64,000 nt of DNA from a bacterium. Lineage in GTDB: Bacteria > UBA8248. This document shows, piece by piece, positions 6,811 to 62,087 of this stretch. The DNA is taken from assembly GCA_965219955.1 (NCBI GenBank), contig OZ244799.1, positions 1,216,001 through 1,280,000 on the forward strand. Reading direction: 5' to 3'. The position numbers and the translations under genes are program-made. Below the pieces are notes generated by a model, which was given only the letters and a program-made list of their open reading frames with translations, did no database searches and was not told the origin of the DNA. The stretch's first letter is position 1. Every line of letters starts with the position of its first letter.

Positions 6811-6864
6811 TTGCGGGCATCTTGCCGGGACATCAATTTTCCTTTCTATTTTAAGGAGTTTGAA

Positions 6865-7878: not shown

Positions 7879-7899
7879 ACGTTTCAACGCGAAAGATAC

Positions 7900-7939: not shown

Positions 7940-7962
7940 GATGCCGGAAAGGGAGTATCAAC

Positions 7963-8086
7963 GTGAAGATTGTTCTGTATTCCGACATCCACGCCCGGCT
8001 TGCGCCTCCGGACGCCTCACGGCGAGCGAATCGCCAAAATGGTGCGGACCGGGGAGTTCCGGGACCCCGTCTATATGCCCCACTAG
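7963..8086 (+). pseudogene. Internally deleted metallophosphoesterase remnant
   Basis: RBS GGGAG and GTG give MKIVLYSDIHA, the DxH start of the calcineurin-like family. This is joined out of frame to a C-terminal-like piece LRTPHGERIAKMVRTGEFRDPVYMPH*. Confidence 0.55.
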
Positions 8087-8093
8087 GTCGACC

Positions 8094-8843
8094 ATGCTCG
8101 TAACCGTTCACGGCGCGAAGCCGAGGGCGTGGAAAGAGCAGGTGAAATCCTACGTCAGAAAACGCTACGCCCATCTGGCGGAGGCCGATGCCTTCCCCGA
8201 AGGCGGGGCGGAGAGGGCGCGGGGCGCCGGCTACCCCGCCCGCTTCATCGACGGGCTTCCCGGGCGCGTTTCGGCCTCTTATTGCGGCTGTGGCTATCTG
8301 CTCGAGGGGGTCGATCTCGATGGCGTGCGGACGGCCGTGGAACTCGGATGCGGCGCGGGATTGGACGCACGCCTCGTGAGCGAGAGGTTGACGGAGGATG
8401 CCGCTCTGTTCGCGCTGGATATGGCGCCCCAGATGCTTCATCGCGCGCGCGAGGCGGTCGATGGCGTCGATGGAGGTGCGCGCCTGCATCTGCTGGCAGG
8501 CGACATGGAGAACATCCCCTTGGCTGCCGGCGTCGCCGATATCGTGCTGGCGAACGCTTCGCTCAATCTCACGGTGGATAAGCAGAAAGTGCTCGCCGAG
8601 GCGCACAGGATTCTGAGGCCGGGCGGCCGCCTCGTGGCCCGCGAGTTGATACGCGAGGGTGAACTGCCCGCCGAGATCGCACGTGACCCCCAGGCGTGGA
8701 ACGCCTCGCTCGGCGGCGTCTGCGAGGAGGCCGAATGGGAGTCCCTGCTGGCGGGCGCGGGGTTTTGCGATATCGATATTTCCGGCCACGCTCCGTTTCG
8801 TCCGGTGGTTTCGGTTCGGGTCCATGCCCGAAGGAGGTGTTGA
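8094..8843 (+). CDS. Class I SAM-dependent methyltransferase, ArsM-like
   Basis: Motifs VRKRYA, SYCGCG, ELGCGAGLD, LDMAPQML, GDMENIPL, RILRPGGRL. Confidence 0.82.
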   Translation: MLVTVHGAKPRAWKEQVKSYVRKRYAHLAEADAFPEGGAERARGAGYPARFIDGLPGRVSASYCGCGYLLEGVDLDGVRTAVELGCGAGLDARLVSERLTEDAALFALDMAPQMLHRAREAVDGVDGGARLHLLAGDMENIPLAAGVADIVLANASLNLTVDKQKVLAEAHRILRPGGRLVARELIREGELPAEIARDPQAWNASLGGVCEEAEWESLLAGAGFCDIDISGHAPFRPVVSVRVHARRRC

Positions 8844-9204
8844 GGAAGTCCTCGCCCGACTTTCGAGATTGTTCGCCGTAGGGACAGGTCGCGACCTTGG
8901 GCCGTTCACAAGAACGGCCCACTACAATAGGCGGTGTGGTTTTGTTCGTCATTCCGGCGAAAGCCGGAATCCATTTTCGCCTTTGCCTTTTCGCCTCCTT
9001 GCTCGGACATCTTTACTTCTGGCGGGAAGGAGCCGAATCGAACACAAAAACGAAAGGCGACTTCTCTGAATTCCGCATCTGGGCGCCGCGCAACAACAAG
9101 GTCGTGGCCGCCCCGCCCGGTGAAAAGTCAAAATGGATTCCGGCTTTCGCCGGAATGACGGCAGTGGTCAATTCCGATCGACGAGGGCTTTTTCAACAAC
9201 CCCC
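8833..9204. mobile_element. MITE-like shell with a GTAG-type REP pair and a dRS3/RPE-like inverted pair
   Basis: Degenerate left end ggtgttgaggaag and right end ctttttcaacaacccc. Perfect 31-bp inverted repeat cgtcattccggcgaaagccggaatccatttt at 8947-8977 and 9130-9160. Confidence 0.65.
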
Positions 9205-9242
9205 GGATAACCGGAATGGAGCCGGACGAATCGCTGGAGCCC

Positions 9243-9270
9243 TTGACTCTCGATGCGAGTCGGGTAAACT
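9243..9270 (+). promoter_or_regulatory. sigma70-type promoter of the tRNA gene
   Basis: TTGACT, 16 bp spacer, TAAACT, ending 14 bp before the tRNA. Confidence 0.6.
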
Positions 9271-9284
9271 TTCCGGCGTTGTAA

Positions 9285-9359
9285 GCGGGAATAGCTCAGT
9301 GGTAGAGCACAACGTTGCCAACGTTGGGGTCGCGGGTTCAAATCCCGTTTCCCGCTCCA
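9285..9359 (+). tRNA. tRNA-Gly (GCC)
   Basis: GCGGGAA/TTCCCGC acceptor stem, anticodon arm caacg-TTGCCAA-cgttg, T-loop GGTTCAAATCC, encoded CCA. Confidence 0.97.
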
Positions 9360-9373
9360 CTTATCCATAACGA

Positions 9374-9405
9374 AGCGGGGGTCGCGAATGCGGTCCCCGC
9401 TATTT
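9374..9405. terminator. Hairpin between the convergent tRNA and NIPSNAP genes
   Basis: agcgggggtcgc-gaat-gcggtccccgct followed by attt. Confidence 0.55.
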
Positions 9406-10029
9406 CATGGGCGAATACGCCACCGGATACCAGATTTCGGAAGTCTCGCTCCGAAGATATGGTCTATAACTTTTTCCCCAGTCGGGAAGTTCCTCGGCTT
9501 GCCGTTGCACCTCGGCCCAGTGGTTCATGTCCCGGTAGGGCCAGATGTGCAGAAACTCGTTCAGGATGCCGGATTCGAACTCTCCCGCCGGGTTGGCGAA
9601 CGCAGCCGCGAGGGGTGAGAGGCGCTCCCTTTCGGGCAGGTTCTTCTCCCACGCCGCGCTGATGTCCCGCATCTTGCCGGTGATTATCACGTCGCTCCTG
9701 ATCTCGTATACGCTCCCCATCTCTCCCGCCCGAGGCCTGGGGCAAAACGGCGCCGCCCGCATGATGCGCGTCTGCTGGTAGAGGATTTTATCCACCTTAA
9801 GCGGCGGCCACCACGGCTGGGCGAGGGCTTCTGCGCGCGCTTGTTCCCGGTGGGCGGAGTTCTCGTATTCCCAGATGTGGAGAATCCGGTTCAGCCCGCC
9901 GATGGCGGAGATGAAGAACCCGATTAAAGGGGATATGGCGGTTCTTTTTTCGATAATCCTGCCGAAATCCTCGACGCCTTCCTGAGCGAATCCCGAGGGG
10001 AACGTGTACGCGCGAACTTCATAGATCAT
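9400..10029 (-). CDS. NIPSNAP family protein (two domains)
   Basis: Duplicated YEVRxY...HIWxY motifs and C-terminal YSPMK. Confidence 0.85.
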   Translation of the reverse strand: MIYEVRAYTFPSGFAQEGVEDFGRIIEKRTAISPLIGFFISAIGGLNRILHIWEYENSAHREQARAEALAQPWWPPLKVDKILYQQTRIMRAAPFCPRPRAGEMGSVYEIRSDVIITGKMRDISAAWEKNLPERERLSPLAAAFANPAGEFESGILNEFLHIWPYRDMNHWAEVQRQAEELPDWGKSYRPYLRSETSEIWYPVAYSPMK

Positions 10030-10230
10030 TTGATATGAACTCCAGGCTGTCGATATGCAAGGTTTCCTGACAAGGAACGTCGTAAAATAACCTCACATTA
10101 CGAGTTATTGGAACATGGAAAATCAATATACTTGACGCGCACCATTCCGTGAAGCATGTTGTTTCGTTATGGACACACGCTCTTTTATATATCGAAAGCC
10201 CTGCAAGCGCTCAAGAGAGAGGGAAGCCCG

Positions 10231-10656
10231 GTGAACGACGATACCCCGCGCTGGCGATACCGATTCGAGAATTACAAGCGCGCTTTTTCCCTGCTGCGCG
10301 AGGCCATCGAAATGATGGACGAAAGAGAACCGAGCCAGCTTGAAAAGGAAGGGATCGTCCAGCGGTTTGAATATACGACCGAACTTGCCTGGAACCTCAT
10401 GAAGGACTATCTGGAGAGTGAGAATGTCGCATTTAAGCAGGTAACGCCCAGGGTCGTCATACGGAAAGCCTTCGAAACGAATCTGCTGGAGGATGGACAG
10501 ACGTGGATGGACGCACTCGATGCGCGCAACAAGATGTCGCACAACTATGACCCCAAAAGGTTCGAGGCCGTCATCGAAGAGATCAGAAAAGACTACCTTC
10601 GCGCCTTCGACGCATTGCACACCCTGTTTCTTGATAAAAGCGGGGAGCGGCCATGA
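10231..10656 (+). CDS. HEPN-domain toxin (HI0074-like nucleotidyltransferase substrate-binding protein)
   Basis: Motifs RWRYRFENY, GIVQRFEYTTELAW and R-x4-H RNKMSHNY. GTG start follows GAGGGA. Confidence 0.88.
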   Translation: MNDDTPRWRYRFENYKRAFSLLREAIEMMDEREPSQLEKEGIVQRFEYTTELAWNLMKDYLESENVAFKQVTPRVVIRKAFETNLLEDGQTWMDALDARNKMSHNYDPKRFEAVIEEIRKDYLRAFDALHTLFLDKSGERP

Positions 10657-11000
10657 ACCACGGACTCTCGGACCGCCAACTCGCGGTTTTGAAACAAATT
10701 CTGGCGCTCTACGCCGAGGAGATCGCCTCGGTCGAACTGTTCGGGTCACGCGCCACGGGCGATTATCGCCCGAATTCGGACGTCGACCTGGTGCTGCGGG
10801 GCGGCATCAAGGAAAAGCAGATTGATCGCCTCTGGACCCTGTTTCATGAGAGCAATTTGCCGATCAGCGTGGACGTGAAGAGCTATGAACTGACGACCTA
10901 CCCGCCGCTCAAGGCGCACATGGACAAGGTCTGCAAGACCCTCTTTACCCAGCAGGACCTGAAGGAAGTGGTTCGAAAACCAGAGGCGTCGGGAGTGTAG
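10653..11000 (+). CDS. MNT minimal nucleotidyltransferase antitoxin
   Basis: GS-x10-DxD motif (FGSRATGDYRPNSDVD). ATGA overlap with the HEPN gene. Confidence 0.88.
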   Translation: MNHGLSDRQLAVLKQILALYAEEIASVELFGSRATGDYRPNSDVDLVLRGGIKEKQIDRLWTLFHESNLPISVDVKSYELTTYPPLKAHMDKVCKTLFTQQDLKEVVRKPEASGV

Positions 11001-11068
11001 GTGAGGCGAAACCGGCGGCCTTCGCATTACCTTCATCCATAAATCATTTTCACAATCGGAGGCGGGAC

Positions 11069-11788
11069 ATGGACAGGGCGGTGTGGGCGATCATCTACGA
11101 TCTGCCCGAGGAAGGGCGGGATGAATACATGGAGTGGTTTCACGGGGTGCACATCCCCGAAAAGCTATCGCGTCCCGGCTACGTCTGGGCGGCGCACTAT
11201 GAGGTGAAACACCCTGGGAAACGTTTCGAGGAGATCGCTGCGCGCCTGAACCGCACCGACGACCCGGAGCTTGCCTCGGGTGCGGGGTTCATCGCGCTCT
11301 TCGGCGGGGTGACCACCCGCGTTTTCTACGATCCGAGTCCTGCGCAGCTGAAAGAGCGCCAGAACCAAGAGACCCGCGAAATGACGGGGATGCGGATTCA
11401 GGCGAGGGGACTCATCCTCTGCGAGGAGTGGCGGGTGGAAGGCCCGGACGCGGGGAAGAGGGAAGCCCCCGGCGTCATGGCGCCCGCGATCCAGATGGGC
11501 CGCTACGATGCGCAGGGAAACGATGAGGACCTCCAGGCCTGGTACGCCCAGGAGCGCATGGCGCGGGTCGCGGATACGCCGGGCTGCATGGGCGCGAGAA
11601 AATACCTGGTGGCCACGGCTTCGCCCAAGCATTCCGTTCTGTATGAGTACACATCTTTAGAGGCGCGCGAGGCGAACTACATCGCGCTCGAGGAGACCGA
11701 AGGGACGAAGCGCGTGCACGGCTATCTCGTCCATCCACCCGGCTCGCCCCTGGCGGCAAGCCGCATCTGGCCGCCGCAGGGTGGGTAG
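11069..11788 (+). CDS. Hypothetical protein, probably two EthD/DUF4286-like alpha-beta barrel domains
   Basis: Repeated EWFHGVHIPEKLSRPG / AWYAQERMARVADTPG pattern. RBS GGAGG. Confidence 0.6.
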   Translation: MDRAVWAIIYDLPEEGRDEYMEWFHGVHIPEKLSRPGYVWAAHYEVKHPGKRFEEIAARLNRTDDPELASGAGFIALFGGVTTRVFYDPSPAQLKERQNQETREMTGMRIQARGLILCEEWRVEGPDAGKREAPGVMAPAIQMGRYDAQGNDEDLQAWYAQERMARVADTPGCMGARKYLVATASPKHSVLYEYTSLEAREANYIALEETEGTKRVHGYLVHPPGSPLAASRIWPPQGG

Positions 11789-12006
11789 GGTGGCGTTGCG
11801 GTCATCGCTCACCACAATTATCCCGGCCGCGAGACCTGCGTCGGCGCCAAAAGCGCTGAGCAGTGGAAGTCGTGCATCATGCATCTTAAGGAGCATCGCC
11901 TCCGGGCGGAATCAATGCTGCGGCATCATTGGCTTCAAGATGAAACGCCCGGGCCGTGACTCATCCATGAAAGACACCCCATGAACCTCTCGGGAGGCCT
12001 TTCGCC

Positions 12007-13044
12007 ATGAAGTTCCACTTGGCCATCAACATGGAACGCATGACGCCCGACTTGGACATGAGCGAAGTCGAGCGCCATACGCTGGAGATGGTGCAGATGG
12101 CCGACGAGGGTGGCTTCGCAATCGCATGGGCCGCCGAACACCATGCGTTGGAAATGACCATTGCGCCCAATCCGTTCCAGATACTGACCTGGTGGGCCGC
12201 CCACACGTCCCGCATCCGGCTCGGCTCGGCGGTGGTCGTGGCGGCGTACTGGCATCCGCTCAAGGCCGCGGGCGAGGCTGCGCTGCTGGATCTATACAGC
12301 GGCGGGCGTCTCGAGTTCGGCATCGGCTCCGGCGCTTACCAGCGCGAGTTCGACCGTATGCATCCCGGCTTGCAGCGCAACGATGGATTCCGGTACATGT
12401 TCGAGATGCTGCCGGTGGTGAAGGCGCTATGGCAGGGCGACTACGAGCACGAGGGCGAGTTCTGGTCCTTTCCGGCGGCGGCTTCTGTGCCGAAGCCGCT
12501 GCAGAAACCCCACCCGCCGATCTGGATTGCGGCGCGTTCGCCGGACACCTACGACTTTGCGGTGAAGCACGGGTGCAACATCCTCTCCTGGCCCCTGACC
12601 CGCCCTATGTCGGAGGTCGAGCTCTACATGGGGCGCCTTGAGACAGCGCTCGCCGGGAACCCCGGCAAGCCGCGGCCGATATTCGCCACCATGCGGCACA
12701 CGGTGGTTTACGACCGCAAAGAGGATTGGGAGATTCCGGTGAAGGCCGCGATACGCCAGTTCGGTCAGTTCGAAAACCTGTTCAAGAATCTCGGAGACGT
12801 TGCCGACGGTTTTCCCCGGACGGTCGACCTGTCGGAGTTGGAAAACCGGGATGAGTATGATCCGAAAATGCTCCATCGCAACCTGCTGTTCGGCACCCCG
12901 GAAGAGGTGACCGAGAAGCTCAAGGCCTACGAAGCGCTCGGCGTCGACCACTTCACGTACTACGCGAGCCTGGGCCTCGGAATGAAGGAGCAGAAGCGGT
13001 CGCTGGAACTGTTCATCAAGGAAGTGATGCCGGCGTTCGCGTGA
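12007..13044 (+). CDS. LLM-class (luciferase-like) flavin-dependent oxidoreductase
   Basis: Motifs WAAEHH, TSRIRLGS, SGGRLEFGIGSG, PKPLQKPHPPIW, GTPEEV, EVMPAF. Confidence 0.92.
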   Translation: MKFHLAINMERMTPDLDMSEVERHTLEMVQMADEGGFAIAWAAEHHALEMTIAPNPFQILTWWAAHTSRIRLGSAVVVAAYWHPLKAAGEAALLDLYSGGRLEFGIGSGAYQREFDRMHPGLQRNDGFRYMFEMLPVVKALWQGDYEHEGEFWSFPAAASVPKPLQKPHPPIWIAARSPDTYDFAVKHGCNILSWPLTRPMSEVELYMGRLETALAGNPGKPRPIFATMRHTVVYDRKEDWEIPVKAAIRQFGQFENLFKNLGDVADGFPRTVDLSELENRDEYDPKMLHRNLLFGTPEEVTEKLKAYEALGVDHFTYYASLGLGMKEQKRSLELFIKEVMPAFA

Positions 13045-13081
13045 TGAAGCGAACGCACACTATCTCCCATGGAGCGCAGGT

Positions 13082-13882
13082 TTGAATCGTACTGAAAGCG
13101 GGAGCGAAACGGCCTGGGAACTGCATGGAAGCGGGCCGACGATAGTCCTGGTTCACGGCTTCGGGCTGAGCCGCGCGATGTGGCAATGGCAACTCCCGGC
13201 GCTCACGCCGCATTTCAGCGTACTGACCTACGATCTGCTCGGACATGGGGAGAGCGCGCCGCCTGCGGGCGCGCCCGACCTCGCCATGTTCTCCAGGCAA
13301 CTGCTCGGGCTCATGGACCGATGCGGCATCGAGCGAGCTGCCGTTGTCGGGTTCTCGCTCGGCGGCATGATTGCGCGCCGTTTCGCGCTGGATCATCCAG
13401 GTCGGCTCTCTGCGCTCGCAATACTGCATTCGCCGCACGATCGCAGCCCCGCCGAACGAGAGGCAGTCCGTGAGCGCGTGCTTCAGACACAATTGCACGG
13501 ACCTTCGGCGAACGTGGACTCCGCCCTCGAGCGCTGGTTCACGCCGGAGTGCCGCTCCCGGGCGCCGGAACTGATCGACCAGGTCCGCAGATGGATCACG
13601 CGAAACGACCCGGCAGTCTATTCGCGGATATACCGGGTGCTCGCCGAGGGTGACGCAGAGATCGTTCAGGGTCTGGAGCGGATCGGCTGCCCGACACTCG
13701 TCATGACGGGCGAGGACGATCCGGGGAATACGCCCGCCATGGCGAGGGGCATGGCCGAACTCATTCCCGGAGCCCGTCTCGTCGTACTGCCCGGACTCAG
13801 GCATATGGCGCTCGCCGAATCGCCGCCGTCGGTCAACGAGCCGCTATGCGCGTTCCTTCGCGACGCACCAGGGACGGTGTGA
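13082..13882 (+). CDS. Alpha/beta hydrolase (3-oxoadipate enol-lactonase-like)
   Basis: Motifs LVHGFG, YDLLGHGES, nucleophile GFSLGG, catalytic Asp in GEDD and His in LRH. Confidence 0.88.
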   Translation: MNRTESGSETAWELHGSGPTIVLVHGFGLSRAMWQWQLPALTPHFSVLTYDLLGHGESAPPAGAPDLAMFSRQLLGLMDRCGIERAAVVGFSLGGMIARRFALDHPGRLSALAILHSPHDRSPAEREAVRERVLQTQLHGPSANVDSALERWFTPECRSRAPELIDQVRRWITRNDPAVYSRIYRVLAEGDAEIVQGLERIGCPTLVMTGEDDPGNTPAMARGMAELIPGARLVVLPGLRHMALAESPPSVNEPLCAFLRDAPGTV

Positions 13883-14064
13883 CCGGGAAAGCAATCGTCT
13901 GTTTGCTTGTGATCGAGCTATTATCTTGTCTGAACGTGACGCCCCACACCTTTCGATGAATTCGAGGAGATTCTCTGTCGCAGACCCTCCTGGCGGTGCT
14001 GTCGCTGGTTTTCATGTCGATATTCCGCCAGTGCGCCTCTGCATGGGCCTGGACATCCTCTTTT

Positions 14065-14343
14065 GAGGGATTGTTGAAAAACCAATTTCGCACGGAATTC
14101 CCCACCACCGGCGCGGCGACAGGCTTCACGGAACCGTAGACGCCCTTATCCCGGGTAGGCGCGTAAGCGCCGTATCGAAGGATGGGGGCCACATCTCTCC
14201 GGCGAGCACGAATTTCGCCCTTCGATACGCGGCTTCGCCGCTACTCAGGGTGAGGCGGAGCGGCGGGCCGCGCGGGACAAGGAGGAGGATTGCGCGCCTG
14301 CTCGGGATGAGTGTAGTGTGTTGTCTCGGGTCGAACCAACCCC
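14065..14343. repeat. MITE-like left end plus a REP pair of the cctgagtag/tatcgaagg family
   Basis: gagggattgttgaaaaa at 14065. Pair gtaggcgcgtaagcgccgtatcgaagg ... ccttcgatacgcggcttcgccgctactcagggtgagg at about 14144-14256. Right end is degenerate. Confidence 0.65.
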
Positions 14344-14413
14344 GCTTCATTGAGGTATTCTCGTCCGCTTTCCGCTATAATCCCCATAAATCCACGTATC
14401 GGAGACTGCGCGC

Positions 14414-15259
14414 ATGATGGGAAAAACAGCCGGAATCTGGATGCTCGTTTTCATCCTGCTGGCGGCGGCTCTTACGGAAACGGCCCACGCCGCCTCTGCC
14501 CCGAAGATGGGCAAGGGCAGGTACGCAGGGATGGTGCTCATCCCCGCCGGCCCTTTCACTATGGGCAGAAACGACGGCCCCGATGAGGAAAAGCCCGCGC
14601 ACCGCGTGTTTCTACCCTCCTATTACATAGACCGGAACTTGGTGACGTGGGCGGATTACCTGCCCTTCATCCAGGCGAAAGGCCCCACCGGGCCTCAAGG
14701 AGAGATGTATTTGGATACGGATGATGCCGATACCAAGATCGTCCCCCAAGGCGACACCTGGGTCGTCGAGAAGGGATTTGAAAAATTCCCGGCGAGCGAG
14801 ATGGCCTGGGCGGGTGCTCTGGCCTACTGCCGCTGGAAGAGGAAGAAGCTGCCCACCGAAGCGCAATGGGAAAAGGCCGCGCGCGGAGCCGACGGCCGCC
14901 TCTATCCGTGGGGCAACCAGAAGCCTTCGGCGGAATATCTGCTCCTGGGGGATTTCAGGGGCCAGACGGCGGTCGTGGGCAGCTACCCCAGGGGCGCGAG
15001 CCCATACGGCGTGAACGACATGGCGGGGCAGGTCTGGGAGTGGACGGCCTCGCTGGCGGTGCCCTATCCCTACAAGCCCAAGGACGGGCGTGAGAACCTG
15101 GGCGCGGTGGATGCGCGCGTGGTGCGCGGTGGCAACTCGGCGAGCCTGCCCGAAGGCATGACGGCCACGAACCGCGAAGTCGTGATGCCCGGCAGGCAGG
15201 CGACGGGACACGGCTACCTCGGCTTCCGCTGCGCCGCCCAGCCGCCCCATTCGACTTGA
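14414..15259 (+). CDS. Secreted FGE-sulfatase-fold (SUMF1/EgtB/PvdO family) protein
   Basis: Signal peptide. Motifs IPAGPFTMG, LPTEAQWEKAARG, DMAGQVWEW, RGG, GFRC. The FGE catalytic cysteines are absent. Confidence 0.88.
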   Translation: MMGKTAGIWMLVFILLAAALTETAHAASAPKMGKGRYAGMVLIPAGPFTMGRNDGPDEEKPAHRVFLPSYYIDRNLVTWADYLPFIQAKGPTGPQGEMYLDTDDADTKIVPQGDTWVVEKGFEKFPASEMAWAGALAYCRWKRKKLPTEAQWEKAARGADGRLYPWGNQKPSAEYLLLGDFRGQTAVVGSYPRGASPYGVNDMAGQVWEWTASLAVPYPYKPKDGRENLGAVDARVVRGGNSASLPEGMTATNREVVMPGRQATGHGYLGFRCAAQPPHST

Positions 15260-52493: not shown

Positions 52494-53576
52494 ATGCCGC
52501 AGATGAGAAGCGTCCTTTTCGCCTTGATCATCCTTGCCTTTCCGGCTCTTTCCGGCGCGAGCCCTGAAACCGAGATCCGCACCCTGCTGCCCAAAGACGG
52601 CATTCCCGCCATCGATGCACCCGAATACGCGAGCGTAAAAGATGCCGAGGGGTTCATGCAGCCGGGTGAGATGGTCATCGGCATCAACATCAACGGAGAG
52701 AAGCGGGCCTATTCCGTGCCCCTGCTCAGTTCACACGAGATCGTGAACGACGTCGTGGGAGGAAGCGCCGTCTCCGTGACGTGGTGACCGCTCTGCTATA
52801 CGGCCATCGTGTATGACCGTAACCTGGGCGGCAGGAAACTCTCTTTCGGCGTTTCGGGAAAACTCTGGAAAAACGTACTCATCATGTACGACCGCCAGAC
52901 GGACACGCTCTGGAGCCACCTGACGGGGGAAGGCCTCATCGGACCGCTCAAGGGGGAGCGCCTGGGGACGTTCCCCGCCGCCATGATGCGCTATTCGGAA
53001 TGGACGCAGCTCTATCCCGATACCCTGGTGCTCAAAAAAAAGCTGAAGGGGATGGGCGGCATGTTCCGCAGCTCCTCCCGGGACCCGTATGAGGGCTACT
53101 ACTACAGCGGGCAGACCGGCGTGATCCCCGAGAAATACCGGGACAACCGCTTGCATCCCAAAACCCTTCTGGTCGCCCTTGCGCTCGATTCCCCGGAAAA
53201 GAAAGGCGAGCAAATCGCCAAGGTGTATCCCTTCGCCGATCTGAACCGCGCCGGCGTGGTGAACGACCGCTTCGCAGGGCGTGACGTTCTGGTCACGTAC
53301 TGCGAGGGGGCGGGCACGGGGGTCGTTTTCGACCGCGTCCTGAAGGGCGAGACGCTGGAGTTCGAACTCATCACGAGCAAGGGAGCGAAGGGCGCCGCCG
53401 CCTGCCGGTTCATGAAGGACAGGAAAACGGGTTCGCGCTGGCAGCGCCTGACCGGCCTCGCCGTGGACGGGCCGATGAAAGGCGCCAGATTGAACCAGCT
53501 TTCCACGACGCTCGCGTTCTGGTTCGGCTGGAAGGATTATTTTCCCAAGAGCGTGATCTACCGCCACCCGAAATAG
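52494..53576 (+). CDS. DUF3179 family exported selenoprotein (U-P-L-C)
   Basis: Signal peptide, KDGIPAID, HEIVND, then VTW-TGA(52785-52787)-PLCYT in frame with FGVSGKL and MYDRQTDTLWS. Joins two ORFs of the track. Confidence 0.9.
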
Positions 53577-53612: not shown

Positions 53613-53874
53613 GGGATTGTTGAAAAAGCCCTGTGGAGCGATTTTGGCTGATCGCAAGCTTTTGAAGTTCACTCCCCCCTCAAGGGGGGAGTGATTTTTC
53701 TCTCCTTGGGCTTTTTCAATAGCCCCTCAAGGGGAGGGAATCCCGATTATCGAATTGTTTGCCGTAGGGACAGGCCTCCGTGCCTGTCCTGACGAAGGAC
53801 AACCACGGAGGGCAGGACAACCCTTTTAGGTTGTTCTGCTACAAAATCATCACGAAGGTTTTTCAGCAGCCCCC
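53613..53874. mobile_element. Short MITE-like element plus a GTAG-type REP pair
   Basis: gggattgttgaaaaagccc ... gggctttttcaatagcccc (53613-53726), then gtagggacaggc...aggacaacc and a second right end at about 53857-53874. Confidence 0.68.
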
Positions 53875-55336: not shown

Positions 55337-55453
55337 ACCGCAATTCTCGCCGAGCATATTCGAGGCATTCCCTGAGAAAGCCGGATTCGCCGGCAAATGG
55401 ATAAAACTTTCAGGTCCGAGCAAGATTCCTGCGAGATGAAAGATTTGCGAACC

Positions 55454-55681
55454 GTAGGGACAACCCTCCGTGGTTGTCCTTTTTCAGGATGGATGCAATC
55501 AGCGTAGGCACGGGGGCCTTTCCCTACGGGACCCCAATCCCCTCATCCTGAGCAGGCGCGCGAGCGCCGTATCGAAGGATGCTCGTTGCCTCTTTCCTCG
55601 GTGCGCGCCCTTCGATACGCGGCTTCGCCGCTACTCAGGGTGAAGGGTGTCGGGAGGCGGATTTCGGAAGTGCGCCCCTAC
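55454..55681. repeat. Cluster of GTAG-type and cctgag/tatcgaagg-type REP pairs
   Basis: gtagggacaacc...tccctac, then ctcatcctgagcagg...tatcgaagg / ccttcgata...ctactcagggtga. Confidence 0.7.
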
Positions 55682-55809
55682 GGGATCCATTATTCTCTTA
55701 CAAAAAATTTTCACCTTATCCCGGGAGATTTATCGAACATTTTTGGGTAAGATTACGCAAATTTCCCCTTTTCAACCCATCACCCGAGTCAAAACTGGAG
55801 AGCAAAGAC

Positions 55810-56529
55810 ATGGCAATTCGCATCGTGGATTTATCGCAGGAGATTTATGACGGCATGCCCGTCTATCCCGGGCACCAGCGGACGGGGGTGTTCCCCAACA
55901 AGACGCACGCGGAGACGGCCAAGGCCTATGCGAATTCGCCCTCGGGCCATACCTCGACGACGAACTGCCTCGTGATGAGCGACCACGGCCCCACGCACGT
56001 GGACGCCTTCTACCACATCGACAAGGACGGGGAGACCATCGACGAACTGGGCCTCGAGTGGTTCTACAACGAGGCGATTTGCCTGGACTTGTCGAAATTC
56101 TGCAACACCGAGGACTGGATGGAGCCGGCCGATCTGGAAAAGGCGTGCGCGGAGGCGAATCTGGAAGTCCCCGACAAGGGCAGCGTACTCATCTGGACGG
56201 GCCACTACGAGGCGAACTACGGCGGCGATTTTCACACCTGGCTCCACACGTATCCGGGCTTGAGTGAGGCGGCGATGGACTGGCTTGCGGACAGGGGCTG
56301 CATCAACGTGGGCATCGATTCGCCCAGCATCGATTCTTCCCAGGCCTTCCGAGACAAGGGCTACTGGGCGCACAAAGTCTGCCGGGAGCGCAAGGTGCTG
56401 AACGTGGAGAACCTCGGGAACCTGAAAGAGGTGGTGAACACGAAATTCATCTTCTCCTGCCTGCCGCTCAAGATTCGGGGCGGAACTGGTTCGCCCATTC
56501 GCGCCGTGGCGATTTATCACGGCGAGTGA
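55810..56529 (+). CDS. Cyclase family metal-dependent amidohydrolase (kynurenine formamidase-like)
   Basis: Motifs DLSQ, HGPTHVDAFYH, GIDSPSID, VENL, LPLKIRGGTGSPIRA. Confidence 0.9.
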   Translation: MAIRIVDLSQEIYDGMPVYPGHQRTGVFPNKTHAETAKAYANSPSGHTSTTNCLVMSDHGPTHVDAFYHIDKDGETIDELGLEWFYNEAICLDLSKFCNTEDWMEPADLEKACAEANLEVPDKGSVLIWTGHYEANYGGDFHTWLHTYPGLSEAAMDWLADRGCINVGIDSPSIDSSQAFRDKGYWAHKVCRERKVLNVENLGNLKEVVNTKFIFSCLPLKIRGGTGSPIRAVAIYHGE

Positions 56530-56530
56530 T

Positions 56531-57949
56531 ATGACGGCATTCCTGCGCGCGGCGGCGAACGTTCTCGTTCACGCTCCCGATCTGGTTCGCTACGGCTCGA
56601 AGCCCTGGCGCGAAACGTTAAGCAGCAATCAGGCTCCGGGTGACGTATTCGCCGATCTGCGCACTTTTGACGAGGTGGCCGGCTACCCGCCGAACCAGGC
56701 ATTCATCGGCAATCTGCCGCCCGAAAATCTGGGCGAAATACCGGCTCCGTGGTACGAGAATCCCCTCGCAGGCGCTTCGCCCGAGGGCCATTTTGGGGAA
56801 ATCCTCCCGCAGGATGCTTTCTACGCGCTTCTGGAAGCCGCCGATCAGTTCGGGTTGATCATGCTCGATAAGGAGCGCCCCGTTCCGGGCGCCATGGGTT
56901 CTGAGGCGGTCGCTGCGCTTCTCGAAAGGGAAAAACCTCCCAGGGAATACAAGCAAGCAGAGGTTTCAGGGCGCATCGAGGGAGGCGAGGCCCTGCCGCT
57001 TTTTCAGGATGGGGATCTAATAGGGTGCGTTCGGCGCGATCACGATTCGGACGAGTCGCTGGATGCCCGGATTCTCCTGGAAAACCTCTCGGCCAAGGCA
57101 AGCGGCGCGTATGCGCTCAGTCATCTTCTCGTGAAGGAAAAGGTCGCTCCTGATGCGATTGAGTATGTCATCAGTTGCTCGGAGGAGGCGGTCGGGGATC
57201 GCTACAATCGCGGCGGCGGCAATCTCGCCAAAACCATCGCCGAGATGGCGGGCTGCGCCAATGCGGCCGGCGTGGATGTGAAGTCCTTCTGCGCGGCGCC
57301 GGTGTATGCGCTCGTGCACGCGGCGGCCCTCATAGAGTCAGGCGTCGTTGAAAACGCCGTCGTCGTCGGAGGCGGTTCGATGGCGAAGCTCGGCATGAAG
57401 GCGTATTTCCACCTCGAAAAGGGGGTGCCCGTCCTGGAAGACGTACTGGGTGGTGTGGCGTTCTTGCTCACGAAAAACCCGGAAGACGGCCCCCGTGTGA
57501 ATCTCGAAGTCGCAGGACGCCACGCGGCGGGCAGGCCCTCCACGCCGCAAGGGCTGGCGGAGGCGCTCGTGCGCGACCCGCTGGCGCGAGCCGGGCGCAA
57601 GATAAGCAGCGTCGATAAGTACGCCGTCGAACTGCATAATCCCGAAATCATGCTGCCGGCGGGGGCGGGAGACGTGGCGGCTACGAACTACAGGATGCTG
57701 GCCGCCATGGCGGTCATGGGCGGGGAGATCGCCCGCGAGGAGATACCGGATTTCGTCGAAACGCACGGGATGCCCGGTTTCGCGCCCACGCAGGGGCACA
57801 TTCCCGCGGGCGTTCCCTTTCTCGGCCATGCGCTCGAGAGGATGCGGGCAGGAAGCCTACGGAGTACAATGGTCGTCGCCAAAGGGAGTCTGTTTCTGGG
57901 CCGGATGTCCCGGCAGGCCGACGGGGCTTCGGTGCTGATAGAAGCGTGA
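56531..57949 (+). CDS. grdC: Glycine/sarcosine/betaine reductase component C beta subunit
   Basis: Motifs [60 protein letters not shown]. Confidence 0.9.
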
Positions 57950-57984
57950 TTCATTCGTTTTTTGTAAGAAAGTGGAGGAAATCC

Positions 57985-58437
57985 ATGTTCGAAGGAAAGA
58001 AGGTGATCGCGCTGGGCGAGCGCGACGGCGTTCCCGGCCCGCTGATCGCCGAGTGCCTCGAGGCGGCGGGTGCGGAGGTCGTATTCCAGAAGACGGAGTG
58101 TTTCGTCTGAACCTCCGCGGGCGCCATGGACCTGGAGAACCAGGCCGCCATCAAGTCGATCGCGGATGATATCGGGTCGGAGAACCTGATGGTGGTATTG
58201 GGAATGCCCGGTGAAGGCCTTCGGCTCGCCGTCGAAACGCTGACCACCGGAGACCCGAGCTGGGCCGGGCCCCTGGCGGGAGTCTCGTTGGGACTCCCCG
58301 TTTATCATATCCTGGAAGAAAGGGTGCGAACCGGGATTCCCGAAGACGTTTACGCCGATAAGCTGCTCATGATGGAGATGGTGCTCGATTTGCCGCAGAT
58401 AGAAAGCGACCTCGCCGATATGCGCGCGGCCGGGTAG
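57985..58437 (+). CDS. grdA: Glycine/sarcosine/betaine reductase selenoprotein A
   Basis: RBS GGAGG. Reads [18 protein letters not shown]...TECFV-TGA(58108-58110)[11 protein letters not shown]...[16 protein letters not shown]. Confidence 0.95.
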
Positions 58438-58446
58438 AGGGAGAGG

Positions 58447-59730
58447 ATGTCCATGCGACTCGAAATGGGTTTATTTCCCGTTTCCAGAATCATCATCGGG
58501 AAGTGCTTCGATTACAAAGACGAAACGCTCACCGTGGACGCCGATGAACTCCGCGAACTGGCGCTCGAAGAAGGCGACCTCAAGGACGCGCGCTTTCACG
58601 CCGCCATGCCGGGCGATTCCGCCCGCATCACGAACGTCCTGGACGCTGTGGAGCCGCTCTACAAGGTGAGCGGGCGATCGTGCGCATTTCCGGGGTTTCT
58701 CGGCCCGGCGAAGACCGCAGGAGAGGGCCGCACCCACAAGCTGGCCGGCATGTGCGTCATCAGCTCCACCCGTTTTCTCGGCCCCATGACGGGCATCATG
58801 ACTTTCCGGGAAGGGATCATCGACATGTCCGGTCCCGGAGCGACCCACTGCACGAATTCGGAAACCGCGAACCTCGTCGCCTGCTACGAGCCGCTGGAGA
58901 ACGCATCGAACGAAGCGCACGACGACGCCGTCCGCCTGGCGACGCTTAAAATCGCGTCCCGGCTGGCCGAGCGCACGGCGGAGCTCGAACCCGTCAGGCT
59001 TGAAACCTTCGAACTTGGCGACGTTGACCCCGATCTCCCCCGGGTCGTCTTCGTCGATCAGGTCATGCACCAGGCGTCCATGGTGCAGACGTTCATGTAC
59101 GGCAAGAACCTGGGGGATTCGCTGCCCACGCTCATTCACCCCAACGAGATGCTCGACGGCGCGGTGGTGGGGGCGAACTACAAGACGCAGCAGAAGGCGC
59201 CGACCTACCTCCACTGCAACATGCCGCTCATCTACGAACTCTACCGCCGCCACGGGGTGGACCTGAATTTCGCGGGGGTGATCATCACGCGCGGCCACCA
59301 CGACAACCAGGCACTCAAGGAGCGCTCGGGGCAGTACGTGGCCAAGCTCGCCACCTTACTCAAGGCGGACGGCGCGGTCCTCGCCTTCGAGGGCGGCGGG
59401 AACTCCACGGTGGACTATTGGCTCACCGTTCAGGCGCTCGAGCAAATGGGCGTGCGCGCCGTTCCGATCATCTACGAGGTGGGCCGGCCCGGTTCGGGCG
59501 AGTTCCCGCTCGTCTTTCACGTGCCCGAGGCCGACGCCGTCATCTCCAAGGGCATGCAGGGGGAGCGCATCGACGCCCCGGCGATGGAGCGGGTCATCGG
59601 CTCCGAAGTCGTCGAGTTCTATAACGGCAAGAGCGTCAACACCCGCGAGGCCTTCACCCTGGCCGACAGTGACTACTACGCCAGCGAGTGGGCGAAGGAC
59701 ATCAACAACATGGTGGGCAAGGATTATTGA
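58447..59730 (+). CDS. Reductase component B proprotein subunit (GrdE/GrdG/GrdI-like)
   Basis: Motifs MRLEMG, PGDSARI, GEGRTH, EGIIDMSGPGA, PTLIHPNEMLDGA, HGVDLNF, EGGGN. Confidence 0.88.
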   Translation: MSMRLEMGLFPVSRIIIGKCFDYKDETLTVDADELRELALEEGDLKDARFHAAMPGDSARITNVLDAVEPLYKVSGRSCAFPGFLGPAKTAGEGRTHKLAGMCVISSTRFLGPMTGIMTFREGIIDMSGPGATHCTNSETANLVACYEPLENASNEAHDDAVRLATLKIASRLAERTAELEPVRLETFELGDVDPDLPRVVFVDQVMHQASMVQTFMYGKNLGDSLPTLIHPNEMLDGAVVGANYKTQQKAPTYLHCNMPLIYELYRRHGVDLNFAGVIITRGHHDNQALKERSGQYVAKLATLLKADGAVLAFEGGGNSTVDYWLTVQALEQMGVRAVPIIYEVGRPGSGEFPLVFHVPEADAVISKGMQGERIDAPAMERVIGSEVVEFYNGKSVNTREAFTLADSDYYASEWAKDINNMVGKDY

Positions 59731-59827
59731 GGCGGGAGCTTTGTCCAGCGAGATATTCGCCCAAACGGGTGTCCGCCATGTTCACTGAGATATTGATTGG
59801 AATGAATTCATATCAGGAGGCCAGGCC

Positions 59828-61144
59828 ATGAGCGCTAAACTTCGGGTCGTTCACTACTTGAACCAGTTCTTCGCAGGCGTCGGGGGCGAGGAGAGGAGCG
59901 ATCATCCCGTATCCGCCCGGCCGGGCCCCGTCGGCCCCGGCGTATTGCTCGATAAAATCCTGGGCGAGGACGCAGAAGTCGTCGGCACCGTCTTCGCGGG
60001 GGACGGCCTTTTCGCCGAAAACGAAAAGTCTTGCGCCGCCGAGGCCATCGCGCGGATTCAGGAGTTTTCTCCCGATCTCCTGCTCGCAGGACCCGCCTTC
60101 AACGCCGGACGATTCGGGCTCGCCTGCGCCGCCGTCTGCCGCGCAGCGGAGGAAGCAGGAATGCCCGTCGTCACCGCCATGCACCCGGAAAATCCGGGTT
60201 TTGCCGCCGCGGGAACCAAAGTCCACACCGTTCCCGCCGCCGATTCCGCCGTCGGCATGGAAGAGGCCCTGGAAGCCGCCGCACGGCTGGGGCTCAAGCT
60301 CGCCCGCGGGGATAAGATCGGAAGCGCCGCTGACGAGGGCTACCTCCCTCGGGGGATCCGCTACAACGAAGTCGCAGAACTCCCGACTTCGCGGCGCGCC
60401 GTCGACATGGTTCTCCGGAAAATCAGGGGCGAGCCCTACCGGACCGAACTCGACGTTCCGACGCTCGAGGAGATAGCGCCGCCTAAGCCCGTCGCCGATC
60501 TCAAGAAAGCCCGCATCGCCATCGTATCCGAAGGCGGCATGGTGCCTCCCGGCAACCCGGACCGCTTCTCCGGGTCGAGGAACGGGAACTGGGCCACGTA
60601 TTCCTTCGAGGGGAAAGACGCGCTTCCGGGCGGCGCGTTCATCTCGATCCACGGGGGCTTCAACACCGTGTTCGTGAACGAGGAGCCCGACCGCATGCTC
60701 GCCGTGGATGCCTTCCGCAGGCTTGCGGACGAGGGCGAGATCGCCGAGCTTTACGATGATTTCTTGAGCACCTGCGGGAACGGCGGCGCCTTCGTCGAGA
60801 TGGACGGCATCGGCCGTGCCTGGGCGGTGGAACTCAAAAAGGGCGGGGTCGAGGGCGTCGTCCTCCCCGCCACGTGAGGCACCGGCACGCGCAGCGGGGC
60901 TGCGCTGGCGAGAGCTTTGGAGCGCGAAGGCATCCCCACCGTCATCGTCACCTGCCTGCCCGACGTGGCGCGCGACATCGGGGTCAACCGCATCGTCAAC
61001 AACCGCGCCGGGCACTTCCACCATCCTTTCGGCGACCCCTCCCGAACGCCCGAGGCCGAGCGCGAATGGCGTCTCGGCGCCGCCCGCGCCGCCGTCAAGA
61101 CGCTCGCCGAAAGAGTGGACGGCCCCACGGTGTTCGAATACTAA
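59828..61144 (+). CDS. Reductase component B selenoprotein (GrdB/GrdF/GrdH-like)
   Basis: Motifs VVHYLNQFFAGVGGEE, GPAFNAGR, GNPD, HGG, then LPAT-TGA(60875-60877, codon 350)-GTGTRSG...EREGIP...HPFGDP...TVFEY. Confidence 0.92.
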
Positions 61145-61289
61145 GGGGGCAGGTGACGCTTCCAGACCCGGCCAGATCGGAATTCAGCAACTTTCGTGCC
61201 AGTTCCGGACATGCGCCAGGATGGTTTTAGCGAGTCCTGAATCTCGAAGATAGATTTGCGTTTCCATGAGGTTTTCATCAATACCTGTT

Positions 61290-61440
61290 GGGTTGTTGAA
61301 AAACCTTGCAATACCGGGATTGTCGTCATTCGCCGGAATGACGAACGAAATCGCACTCGCCCGTAGGGGCGGTTCGCGAACCGCCCCTACAATCACATCG
61401 CGTCAAACCCTCATTAGTCAGGGGTCTTTCAATAATTTCT
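61290..61440. mobile_element. Short MITE-like element with two REP-type hairpins
   Basis: gggttgttgaaaaacc ... ggtctttcaataa, enclosing cgtcattcgccggaatgacg and gtaggggcggttcgcgaaccgcccctac. Confidence 0.65.
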
Positions 61441-61563
61441 TCGAGGGCGAGTGGTTTCGGAGTGTGTGGAAGTCTGTTCTTCCGTTGTTTTGACATCTCC
61501 TCGCGCACTGGGTGAAACTGGTTTGGCTTGCTATCTCCACGAGAAATGACAGGAGAGAACCGT

Positions 61564-62016
61564 ATGACGGAATTCGAAACTGCAAGCCTCGCCGTCCAGC
61601 AAGCCGCCCTTGCCCTGCAAAAAGACACGCTTGAACTGCAACAGGCCTCCCTGGCCCTTCAACAAGCCTCGCTGGCATTGCATCGCGCCTCCGTATGGGT
61701 CGCAGCGCTCGTCGGCGCCGCGCAATGCAGCCTGATAGGGTATGGACTCTACATCATGCGCCAGGCCGCAAAGCAACGCGACGCCCAGCACCGGGAAAAC
61801 ATGGCCCAGCATCAAGAGACCATGAAGGCGCTGGACAGCCGGCATCAAGAAGCCATGGCGACGCTGAAAGGTCAGCAAGAAGCGCAAAGCGACCAGCACC
61901 GGGAAACGATGGCGGCCATAGAAAGCCGGCACCGGGAAAACATGGAGGCGATCAAGGTCCAGAGCGAGTCGCTGAGGGAACTCATCCGCCGCACGTCCGC
62001 ACCGCAGGACGGTTGA
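61564..62016 (+). CDS. Hypothetical single-TM coiled-coil repeat protein
   Basis: RBS AGGAG. Heptad repeats SLAxQQA, one TM helix, then five H-x-E-x-M repeats. Confidence 0.65.
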   Translation: MTEFETASLAVQQAALALQKDTLELQQASLALQQASLALHRASVWVAALVGAAQCSLIGYGLYIMRQAAKQRDAQHRENMAQHQETMKALDSRHQEAMATLKGQQEAQSDQHRETMAAIESRHRENMEAIKVQSESLRELIRRTSAPQDG

Positions 62017-62087
62017 TGGTGTCGGGGCGCCGCTTGCGCCCGTCCTGACGAAGGACAACCACAGGGGGTTGTCCCTGCGAATCCTCC

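Follow-up and report, generated by a model that had tools for sequence, protein, structure and literature searches.

A selenium-dependent Grd-type gene cassette with altered protein B subunits and no GrdD in a Nitrospinota bacterium

[quoted passage not shown] In C. difficile, the labelled pyruvoyl peptide of GrdE was assigned to residues 242-266 (available portion of PMC9908766), and a second carbonyl, located on GrdB, had been put forward in earlier studies cited there. Evolution of Grd-type protein B modules has also yielded an enzyme that breaks a non-amine C-X bond, the fluoroacetate reductase FarB/FarE of Cloacibacillus, whose modules feed the ordinary GrdA and protein C components of the host (PMC10838667, in excerpt). 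A Grd-type locus from a Nitrospinota bacterium, which is marine or sponge-associated, was compared with these systems. Reference loci were taken from A. noterae for glycine reductase (L074) and from Enterococcus gilvus (L075) and A. noterae (L081) for betaine reductase.

The locus lies in the window, the whole stretch of 64,000 nucleotides that was analysed, and the window genes were compared with the whole genome, which is a single contig. Five ORFs, all on the + strand, were confirmed. The first encodes a cyclase-family metal hydrolase (55810..56529; PF04199, 111 bits), whose stop codon ends at 56529, 1 nt before the grdC ATG at 56531. grdC (56531..57949) encodes the thiolase-like beta subunit of protein C in a short form of 472 aa that lacks the C-terminal tail, and grdA (57985..58437; PF04723) encodes selenoprotein A. 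Both products exceeded the cut-offs of curated equivalog models (GrdC, 577 bits versus 450 for NF040746; GrdA, 201 bits versus 130 for NF040748). They are followed by a grdE-like gene (58447..59730; PF09338, 355 bits) and a grdB-like selenoprotein gene (59828..61144; PF07355, 388 bits), whose product scored 406 bits with the subfamily model TIGR01918 (cut-off 65). In-frame TGA codons at 58108-58110 and 60875-60877 specify Sec42 in the CFVU motif of GrdA and Sec350 in PATUGTGTRSGA of the GrdB-like protein. The Sec machinery of the host genome is complete, with tRNA-Sec, SelA, SelB and SelD all recovered. Predicted folding of the hairpins 3' of the two UGA codons did not surpass that of shuffled sequences (z -1.64 and -0.61). 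The ORF positions and the 1-nt spacer bear out the tightly packed run given in the preliminary description, and the family scores, in-frame TGAs and Sec machinery bear out its assignment to a selenium-dependent Grd-type system.

Both protein B subunits are altered, as had been proposed. In the GrdE-like protein, Tyr245 (codon 59179-59181, read directly) occupies the position of the pyruvoyl-forming Cys, so that the window protein has GANYK where GrdE and GrdG have SGNC and GrdI has SGSF. N-Y-K was present in 24/24 aligned ortholog rows, and the pyruvoyl Cys is gone from all of them. In the GrdB-like protein, UxxGxxS replaces UxxCxxC. None of the curated NCBIfam substrate-specific models (glycine, sarcosine, betaine, fluoroacetate) reached its cut-off in the window protein B subunits. 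The GrdE-like protein scored 255 with the GrdG model (cut-off 780) and 128 with the FarE model NF053623 (675), and the GrdB-like protein scored 385 with TIGR01917 (602), 412 with the GrdF model (800) and 344 with the GrdH model NF040795 (775), whereas the control, Acetoanaerobium GrdB, reached 946 bits against 602. Moreover, five of the six GrdB and GrdF motif blocks given in the accessible part of PMC9751293 fail in the window protein, and HGGxD is changed to HGGFN. In IQ-TREE phylogenies, the UxxGxxS proteins formed one clade (SH-aLRT 99) apart from the GrdB/F/H references (SH-aLRT 97), and the GrdE tree was congruent with the GrdB tree, so that the window proteins fall into none of the characterised GrdB/F/H and GrdE/G/I groups.

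A missing pyruvoyl site does not by itself point to a new substrate, because the Cys is absent from the GrdI subunit of betaine reductase as well. This likeness would suit a betaine-type reductase that converts glycine betaine, or a similar quaternary ammonium acetate, to trimethylamine in marine or sponge-associated hosts meeting abundant osmolytes, and near-identical DNA was found in sponge, coral and marine metagenomes (five studies, the likely source study not counted). However, the GrdH score is less than half its cut-off, and the reference GrdH/GrdI pair falls in a separate, well-supported clade. GrdH also retains UxxCxxC and HAGFDP, whereas the corresponding motifs of the focal proteins read UxxGxxS and HGGFNT, and a BCCT transporter stood beside 0/25 focal loci, unlike in the E. 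gilvus and P. acidaminophilum clusters. We consider a betaine-type reductase unlikely. Among the loci compared, no conserved transporter or regulator that might hint at the substrate was found beside the cassette.

The conserved unit is grdC-grdA-grdE-grdB, which was present in 29 of the 51 genomes of the phylum; orthologs in the 28 further genomes were 66-96% identical, and the relatives counted are kin, so that the counts overstate independence. The C-A-E-B order was kept in 24/26 loci, the remaining two being interrupted by contig ends. TGA was found at the homologous grdB codon in 26/26 orthologous loci and CFVU in all 24 that hold grdA. The four genes are all under purifying selection, with dN/dS of 0.08-0.16 against the loci L098 and L100; the values were 0.13-0.16 for grdA and 0.07-0.10 for the part of grdB 3' of the Sec codon. 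The GrdE Cys, the GrdB cysteines and GrdD are likewise lost in loci of Entotheonella, Proteobacteria, Desulfobaccales, Dehalococcoidia, Acidobacteriota and Hydrogenedentota. These results bear on whether the genes are decaying remnants. In the part of PMC6778437 available, a protein B without UxxCxxC was treated as a likely pseudogene, and the motif is said to be required for protecting Sec from oxidation. One ortholog (L051/L102) does diverge from the motif immediately 3' of the Sec codon, and four loci carry an insertion of toxin-antitoxin or methylase genes that separates grdE from grdB. Against decay, the low dN/dS extends to codons 3' of the TGA, the ORFs are intact in 25/26 loci, and the same substitutions are fixed in at least seven phylum-level lineages, which makes decay hardly credible.

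A 162-aa ORF without a Pfam match (61528..62016, + strand) lies 3' of grdB in the window and in four relatives (cluster c31: L088, L089, L090, L092 and the window). Its place after grdB is the same in either genomic context, and it may move together with the cassette; for the DNA of this region, the genome contains up to 12 similar stretches. Dispersed repeats were observed on both sides of the run, namely an intergenic repeat 5' of the cyclase gene (55440..55661; up to 178 blastn copies in the genome) and a palindromic repeat 3' of grdB (61314..61412; up to 75 copies). Within the former lies one arm of a 52-nt inverted repeat, the other arm being at 62028-62079, and metagenome contig depth spiked at both repeats.

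The preliminary description had placed the cyclase gene at the head of the operon and suggested that the hydrolase liberates a compound that is then reductively cleaved. The short spacer, of 1 nt in the window and of 4 nt in both L034 and L037, agrees with such a pathway, and an RNA-library contig (X20, 56332-56537) reaches the junction but extends only 7 nt into grdC. However, the cyclase gene adjoins grd in only 3/26 orthologous loci. Within the genus, 18/22 relatives carry its ortholog (84-97% identity), in most cases separated from grd by hundreds of kb or located on a different contig, and in one of these genomes (G029) no grdE-like match was found. In 4/4 relatives examined, the gene order is htrA, DUF3179, lgt, cyclase, ACAD, MR_MLE, FAH, c109 and SDR-like, indicating that the ancestral context of the cyclase is directly 5' of an acyl-CoA dehydrogenase/enolase/FAH/SDR set. 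Because this backbone is kept in all four, the grd cassette was inserted in this lineage, separating the cyclase from the genes that normally lie 3' of it. In other relatives, the genes 5' of grd are different, being SDR, multicopper oxidase, PrpD and LeuA, or ADH, cupin and peroxiredoxin. The genome has 14 paralogs of the cyclase, and the window cyclase itself scored 69 bits with the arylformamidase model TIGR03035 (cut-off 223). The cyclase is a chance neighbour of the cassette and not part of the conserved unit. A joint pathway is thus very improbable and already largely refuted by synteny; the lack of a conserved link in relatives was an outcome that the preliminary description itself had named as speaking against it.

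The earlier claim that grdD and thioredoxin genes are missing in and beside the cluster was upheld. No grdD, trxA or trxB was found within the window. In the genome, the sole PF02504 match was plsX, located beside fabH and fabD, NF040747 scored 21 bits on plsX, and a GrdD protein probe gave no tblastn match at E<=1e-3. GrdD above cut-off was found in 0/51 phylum genomes and in 0/5 genomes of other phyla with UxxGxxS proteins, while the positive control of the search found 4/5. With the tblastn probe, 15/134 loci matched, none from Nitrospinota. trxB (3480283-3481179) and trx (1105085-1105303) lie far from the cassette, and thus no standard grdD and trx set occurs elsewhere in the genome. The window GrdC retains the CSEEA cysteine and has 12 aa after KGSLFLGRM. 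This tail measured 12-20 aa in 32/32 loci without GrdD and 46-49 aa in 13/14 loci with GrdD, the 14th being a 381-aa GrdC-GrdD fusion; the window GrdC thus lacks a tail of roughly 35 residues that is present wherever GrdD exists. AckA (acetate kinase) and PTA_PTB (phosphotransacetylase) were each found in 0/23 genomes of the genus, with 9/14 and 10/14 named control genomes positive, respectively. AckA is present in 2/5 carriers from other phyla, and absence of an acetyl phosphate route is therefore not general.

A drifted but ordinary glycine or sarcosine reductase could be considered, in which another carbonyl replaces the pyruvoyl group and PlsX or GrdC replaces GrdD. PlsX, a GrdD homologue, is present, and it or another enzyme could be a stand-in for GrdD. 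GrdA and GrdC pass their equivalog models, protein B comes closest to GrdF/GrdG and GrdB in its partial scores, and the second carbonyl proposed for GrdB leaves some room for glycine as substrate. Nevertheless, the uniform loss of the pyruvoyl Cys, the failed GrdB and GrdF motif blocks, the position outside the reference clade and a genus without AckA or Pta to use acetyl phosphate argue against this explanation, which appears rather doubtful.

On balance, we lean towards a working Grd-type reductase of a widespread, uncharacterised branch, acting on a substrate other than glycine or sarcosine and probably making no acetyl phosphate. No published description of a GrdD-less UxxGxxS variant was found in the literature. 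The genes present and absent, their motifs, conservation, selection and synteny are observed, whereas the chemistry, substrate class and product that follow are inferred. By analogy with Grd, the Sec of the GrdB-like protein, held with the GrdE-like subunit, would attack the alpha-carbon of X-CH2-COO- and expel X, and the carboxymethyl group would be transferred to the GrdA Sec. The CxxU pair of GrdA would reduce this group and be re-reduced by the housekeeping thioredoxin system, and the resulting acetyl group would be passed to the cysteine of GrdC, the thiolase-like subunit. With Tyr in place of the precursor Cys, no pyruvoyl group is expected, and therefore the substrate would not be held as a Schiff base. 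This argues against glycine and sarcosine and would favour a substrate that can shed its leaving group without an imine, for example a betaine-like onium compound or a different substituted acetate. Since GrdD is missing and neither acetate kinase nor phosphotransacetylase occurs in the genus, GrdC itself probably discharges the acetyl-thioester, giving acetyl-CoA or acetate rather than acetyl phosphate.

Compared with glycine reductase, the window shares CxxU in selenoprotein A, Sec at the homologous selenoprotein B codon, a GrdE-family partner, a thiolase-like GrdC with the CSEEA cysteine, and the families PF04723, PF07355, PF09338 and DUF5940. It differs in Tyr245, in UxxGxxS, in the TIGR01917 score, in a GrdC without the C-terminal tail, and in the lack of GrdD genome-wide and of adjacent trx; its genus has no AckA/Pta, and its host encodes heme-copper oxidase subunit I. 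With betaine reductase it shares a GrdE-family subunit without a cleavable Cys, and a pyruvoyl Schiff base is expected in neither. In contrast, GrdH keeps UxxCxxC, belongs to a separate clade and has a model that the window protein does not satisfy, and the reference cluster has trxB, trx, grdD and a BCCT transporter, which the window cassette is without. The window also differs from Far in its low FarE score and in having no MFS antiporter or radical-SAM gene, yet FarB/FarE, as described in that excerpt of PMC10838667, provide a precedent for a Grd-type protein B acting on a substituted acetate.

The gene run was defined by profile search. Five tightly packed ORFs were found on the + strand between 55810 and 61144, and the coordinates and profile scores bore out the preliminary description as written. 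The run consists of a PF04199 cyclase-family hydrolase gene identified by profile match (55810-56529), grdC (56531-57949), grdA (57985-58437), a GrdE-family gene (58447-59730; PF09338, 355 bits) and a GrdB-family gene (59828-61144), with only 1 nt between the cyclase stop and the grdC start. GrdC passed its model (NF040746, 577.4 bits versus a cut-off of 450), and GrdA passed the selenoprotein A test (NF040748, 201.4 versus 130), with an in-frame TGA at 58108 and the CxxU motif present as CFVU. The GrdB-family gene carries a second in-frame TGA at 60875. On the same strand, 3′ of grdB, lies an ORF of 162 aa (61528-62016) with no match in Pfam; inspection by eye showed a repetitive, Gln/Ala-rich N-terminal part and one hydrophobic stretch, and up to 12 DNA stretches resembling it were seen in the genome.

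The window lies on one contig of 4.28 Mb (G+C content 61%), and the host was placed in Nitrospinota/Nitrospinaceae by the names on its close relatives. DNA near-identical to the window was present in sponge, coral and marine metagenomes. The genome encodes tRNA-Sec, SelA, SelB and SelD, the SelD gene itself containing a TGA, as well as heme-copper oxidase subunit I. The best score for NarG/NxrA-like proteins in the genome was only 26.8 bits, thus the organism was not called a nitrite oxidiser. A whole-window Rfam scan at the gathering threshold gave tRNA only, and no riboswitch or SECIS family. Another in-frame TGA was observed in a DUF3179 gene (52494-53576, + strand), at codon 98 within the motif W-U-P-L-C. 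With this TGA read as Sec the protein scored 299 bits on PF11376, and because the full-length match was retained in relatives (75-94% identity), a selenoprotein form of DUF3179 is probable.

The two protein B subunits were then compared with references taken from public replicons: P. acidaminophilum GrdG/GrdF (two copies), a Photobacterium cluster, and the E. gilvus and A. noterae clusters, which are ordered trxB-trx-grdA-grdC-grdD-grdI-grdH-BCCT and grdE-grdA-grdB-grdC-grdD, respectively. The GrdB-like protein belongs to the Grd/Prd selenoprotein B superfamily (TIGR01918, 405.9 versus 65.45; PF07355, 388 versus 22), and its U350 aligned with the Sec of the GrdB, GrdF and GrdH references. The window proteins failed the defining tests of glycine, sarcosine, betaine and fluoroacetate reductases and of the GrdC/GrdD protein C. 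The GrdB equivalog TIGR01917 gave 385.5 bits versus a cut-off of 602.2 (the A. noterae GrdB control scored 945.7), the sarcosine reductase models GrdF (NF040794) and GrdG (NF040793) gave 411.6 versus 800 and 255.5 versus 780, the betaine reductase model GrdH (NF040795) gave 343.6 versus 775, and the fluoroacetate reductase model FarE (NF053623) gave 128.5 versus 675.

The motif UxxCxxC after Sec is cited as a hallmark of GrdB/F/H (Wagner 1999, via passages of PMC6778437 and PMC13188914). All six reference B selenoproteins read TSTUGTCTRCGA at this place; the window protein and 25 of 26 orthologs read PATUGTGTRSGA, both cysteines being gone (UxxGxxS). In genome G036 (L051/L102) the grdB ortholog diverges directly after the Sec codon, a frameshift or an assembly error. 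The GrdB/GrdF motif blocks set out in PMC9751293 are YxNx6GGE, CGD, GPxF[NF]AGRYG, AHGGxD[QTAP] or IHGGYDR, RV[IL]PxD, and TxGNxTxV or TTGTGT. Only the first is present in the window protein, where the others read AGD, RFG, IHGGFNT, RMLAVD and TCGNGGAF. Most orthologs retain CGD and RYG, and the other three departures are common to them. In the HGGxD block, Asp is changed to Asn in the focal clade (HGGFNT), unlike all amine-cleaving references. In GrdE, cleavage at a Cys gives an N-terminal pyruvoyl group, and in C. difficile the labelled peptide with this group was mapped to aa 242-266 (PMC9908766). The column of the pyruvoyl Cys reads SGNC in GrdE/GrdG, SGSF in GrdI and GANYK in the window, where it is occupied by Tyr245 (TAC at 59179-59181); Tyr was found in this column in 24/24 tabulated GrdE-like orthologs. 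A sequence search returned no solved structure for either protein B subunit.

To place both subunits in their families, a pattern scan with one genome per species was carried out, yielding 79 loci; its seed was the focal GrdE-like alignment, hence the set is biased to similar proteins. UxxGxxS selenoproteins paired with Asn-Tyr GrdE-like proteins were found in Nitrospinota, Entotheonella (Tectomicrobia), Beta- and Gammaproteobacteria, Desulfobaccales, Dehalococcoidia, Acidobacteriota and Hydrogenedentota. Trees were built with FastTree (97 rows, three rows dropped for length) and with IQ-TREE (57 rows, after near-identical focal and Bacillota rows were thinned and a few duplicates removed). 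In the IQ-TREE phylogeny the UxxGxxS proteins formed one clade (SH-aLRT 99) with the focal Nitrospinaceae group inside it (99), while the GrdB, GrdF and GrdH references fell elsewhere (97). The GrdE-family tree was congruent (partner clade 98, references 99), and in both trees the focal protein B subunits fell outside the GrdH/GrdI clade. These phylogenies uphold the earlier proposal of a non-canonical protein B. Four other members of the UxxGxxS branch were scored, and none reached a curated equivalog. Separately, a large Bacillota clade (L137-L166; MAGs and Alkaliphilus peptidifermentans) was observed in which the GrdE-like protein has Tyr for the pyruvoyl Cys (SGNYVW) and UxxCxxC is kept. 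In about a dozen of these loci trxB, trx and grdD adjoin, and the clade reaches no curated substrate-specific model (the best, in L152, being 475 versus 800). It looks like another unassigned protein B type.

Absence of UxxCxxC is taken as a sign of a pseudogene in a passage of PMC6778437. The dN/dS was estimated against two orthologs at useful divergence, more distant pairs being saturated. It was 0.08-0.16 for all four cassette genes and 0.07-0.10 over the 88 codons that follow Sec in grdB, and both TGA codons, in grdA and grdB, were conserved in orthologs. Predicted hairpins in the 60 nt after each UGA did not outperform shuffled sequences (z -1.64 and -0.61), which gives support neither way. 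Contigs of three metatranscriptome libraries from two studies (sponge, coral) matched all genes in part, with 88-100% likeness, over stretches of the cyclase, grdC, grdE and grdB and over the grdC-grdA-grdE junctions. Such libraries can contain DNA, the contigs give neither level nor operon structure, and uncovered stretches are uninformative; the matches are no more than a hint that relatives are expressed.

The preliminary description had made the cyclase the head of the operon and had suggested that the hydrolase may release the substrate of the reductase. The GrdE-like protein was searched in all 51 genomes of the phylum, and orthologs with 66-96% identity were found in 28 further genomes, plus one fragment. 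In the 26 orthologous loci fetched for comparison, the order grdC-grdA-grdE-grdB was kept in 24, the other 2 being cut by contig ends, and the cyclase adjoined grdC in only three (L034, L037 and L039). Of 22 relatives in the genus, 18 had a cyclase ortholog (84-97% identity), mostly on another contig than grd or hundreds of kb away, and in G029 it was present with no grdE-like match found. Four cyclase loci (L167-L170) all showed the order htrA, DUF3179, lgt, cyclase, acyl-CoA dehydrogenase, MR_MLE (an enolase-superfamily protein), FAA hydrolase, small ORF and SDR-like gene. The window has the identical backbone, except that grdC-grdA-grdE-grdB and the 162-aa ORF stand between the cyclase and the dehydrogenase. 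This shared order indicates that the cyclase goes with the downstream catabolic genes and that the cassette is an insertion in between. Synteny therefore refutes the cyclase as operon head, and a tempting but false hydrolase-reductase pathway is removed for the window.

Identity of the cyclase as an arylformamidase/kynurenine formamidase was also considered and rejected (TIGR03035, 69 bits versus a cut-off of 223), only the broad PF04199 family being matched. The genome's own contig (G000:C1) encodes 14 PF04199-like paralogs with 24-39% identity to the window copy, an unusual expansion of this hydrolase family. In one relative the cyclase ortholog has an internal TAG (G024:C15:308160-308870).

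Flanks of the cassette vary between sublineages. Seven loci have it downstream of LeuA-like, PrpD-family, multicopper-oxidase and SDR genes and four downstream of ADH, cupin and peroxiredoxin genes, and no transporter, regulator or hydrolase was conserved beside it among the orthologous loci compared. Insertions of 1.8-2.5 kb between grdE and grdB were seen in L090 and L094 (about 10300-12000) and in L096 and L105 (about 10600-12000); two of these loci hold an unknown ORF and a PIN-domain gene, the two others a DNA-methylase-like gene and an unknown ORF. Separation of the two protein B genes is thus tolerated. Short dispersed, partly palindromic intergenic repeats occur at 55440-55661, 61314-61412, 62028-62079 and 53782-53812, with up to 178 and 75 genome copies, and may have mediated the move of the cassette. 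In metagenome contigs, such repeats show up as spikes in depth and as spurious joints. A joint of 55529 to 61326, seen in one DNA and one RNA run, was considered as excision of the cassette; dispersed repeats at both places explain it better.

The preliminary description had also reported no grdD, thioredoxin or thioredoxin reductase in or beside the cluster, and the genome-wide check agreed. GrdD is the subunit converting the acetyl-thioester to acetyl phosphate. Its model NF040747 gave at best 21 bits in the own genome, on plsX (GrdD and PlsX have a common Pfam family, PF02504), versus a cut-off of 350, and tblastn gave none. A canonical grd operon includes trxA/trxB and often grdX; the window has none of these, and the trxB and trx of this genome are encoded outside it. 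GrdD was over the cut-off in 0/51 genomes of the phylum and in 0/5 genomes of other phyla with UxxGxxS modules, 4 of which have GrdC. In positive controls GrdD was found in 4/5, the fifth being split by contig ends, and a search with a GrdD protein probe agreed with these results. Alignment of GrdC revealed 46-49 residues after KGSLFLGRM in 13 of 14 GrdD-holding loci, the 14th (L165) running into a fused GrdD, and only 12-20 residues in 32/32 loci without GrdD. A short GrdC tail with no GrdD is a clean rule here, in loci that are kin and whose counts amount to only a few independent lineages. L165 (a Bacillota MAG) and L121 (an Acidobacteria MAG) each have GrdC and GrdD as one fused ORF of ~840 aa, and the joint of the fusion is the C-terminal tail that is missing from GrdC of GrdD-less loci.

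Acetate kinase and PTA_PTB were each found in 0/23 genomes of the genus (of 14 named control genomes, 9 and 10 were positive, respectively). AckA was present in 2/5 carriers from other phyla, so its absence is not general. From the lack of GrdD, the short GrdC tail and the lack of AckA/Pta in the genus together, we infer that the acetyl group leaves GrdC by a route other than acetyl phosphate. CoA thiolysis on GrdC would yield acetyl-CoA and would suit a thiolase-like enzyme; alternatively, the acetyl group could be released by hydrolysis.

Leads on the substrate came from related clusters. Three genomes of the same genus (L131-L133, in G030, G035 and G032) carry a second Grd-type cluster, 41-47% identical, at about 6268-14906 in each. 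It runs TauE (divergent), IclR, grdA, grdC, grdE, grdB, TctC, TctB, TctA, and its motifs are SGNYK in the GrdE-like and PATUGSGTRSGA in the GrdB-like protein. The flanking sulfite-exporter gene TauE and carboxylate-transporter genes TctCBA suggest an anionic carboxylate substrate from which sulfite is released, such as sulfoacetate. A long cluster in L116-L120, from Desulfobaccales and delta MAGs, has a single GrdC, GrdA and Trx for two protein B modules and also encodes a B12-binding protein, a URO-D-like methyltransferase, a four-rhodanese protein, a molybdopterin oxidoreductase, and SSF and DASS symporters. Both contexts hint, as a lead and not a finding, that the UxxGxxS branch acts on carboxylates whose substituents contain sulfur or are of another non-amine kind.

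The window system is a member of the superfamily and is predicted to work like a Grd reductase. A tentative reading, to which we give a rather low probability, is that the UxxGxxS/Tyr branch, with its tail-less GrdC and its lack of GrdD, constitutes a distinct system of oxygen-respiring and other environmental bacteria. It would reductively cleave acetates that carry either a non-amine or an onium substituent and deliver the C2 unit to CoA (or to water) rather than to phosphate, in an assimilatory or detoxifying rather than a fermentative, ATP-yielding role, and sister modules might take anionic leaving groups.

Among the papers listed by the literature searches, none described a GrdD-less or UxxGxxS form, and none linked Nitrospinota or Entotheonella with glycine reductase; in the main text of PMC10839748 the terms selen-, betaine, sarcosine, grd and Stickland are all absent. 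The complete Grd tree of PMC9751293 (Fig. S6, in its supplement) might hold related sequences, although that study filtered by a GrdB motif that the window proteins fail. New here are the synteny refutation of the cyclase link, the GrdC-tail/GrdD rule, the lack of AckA and Pta throughout the genus, and a Nitrospinota host from marine or sponge habitats. Should the branch be active, the reaction scope of the selenoenzyme family would be wider, a new fate would be implied for the acetyl-thioester intermediate, and a widespread gene set that now carries the annotation 'glycine/betaine reductase' would be misread in marine, sponge, soil and groundwater metagenomes. GrdC tail length offers a practical rule, a short tail marking the absence of GrdD.

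In textbooks, Grd enzymes exemplify how strict anaerobes ferment amino acids in a process that depends on selenium and yields ATP. The Grd catalytic core described here, which is without the glycine-binding cofactor site, the acetyl-phosphate-making subunit and any acetyl phosphate-using enzyme, is conserved and under purifying selection in bacteria encoding a heme-copper oxidase.
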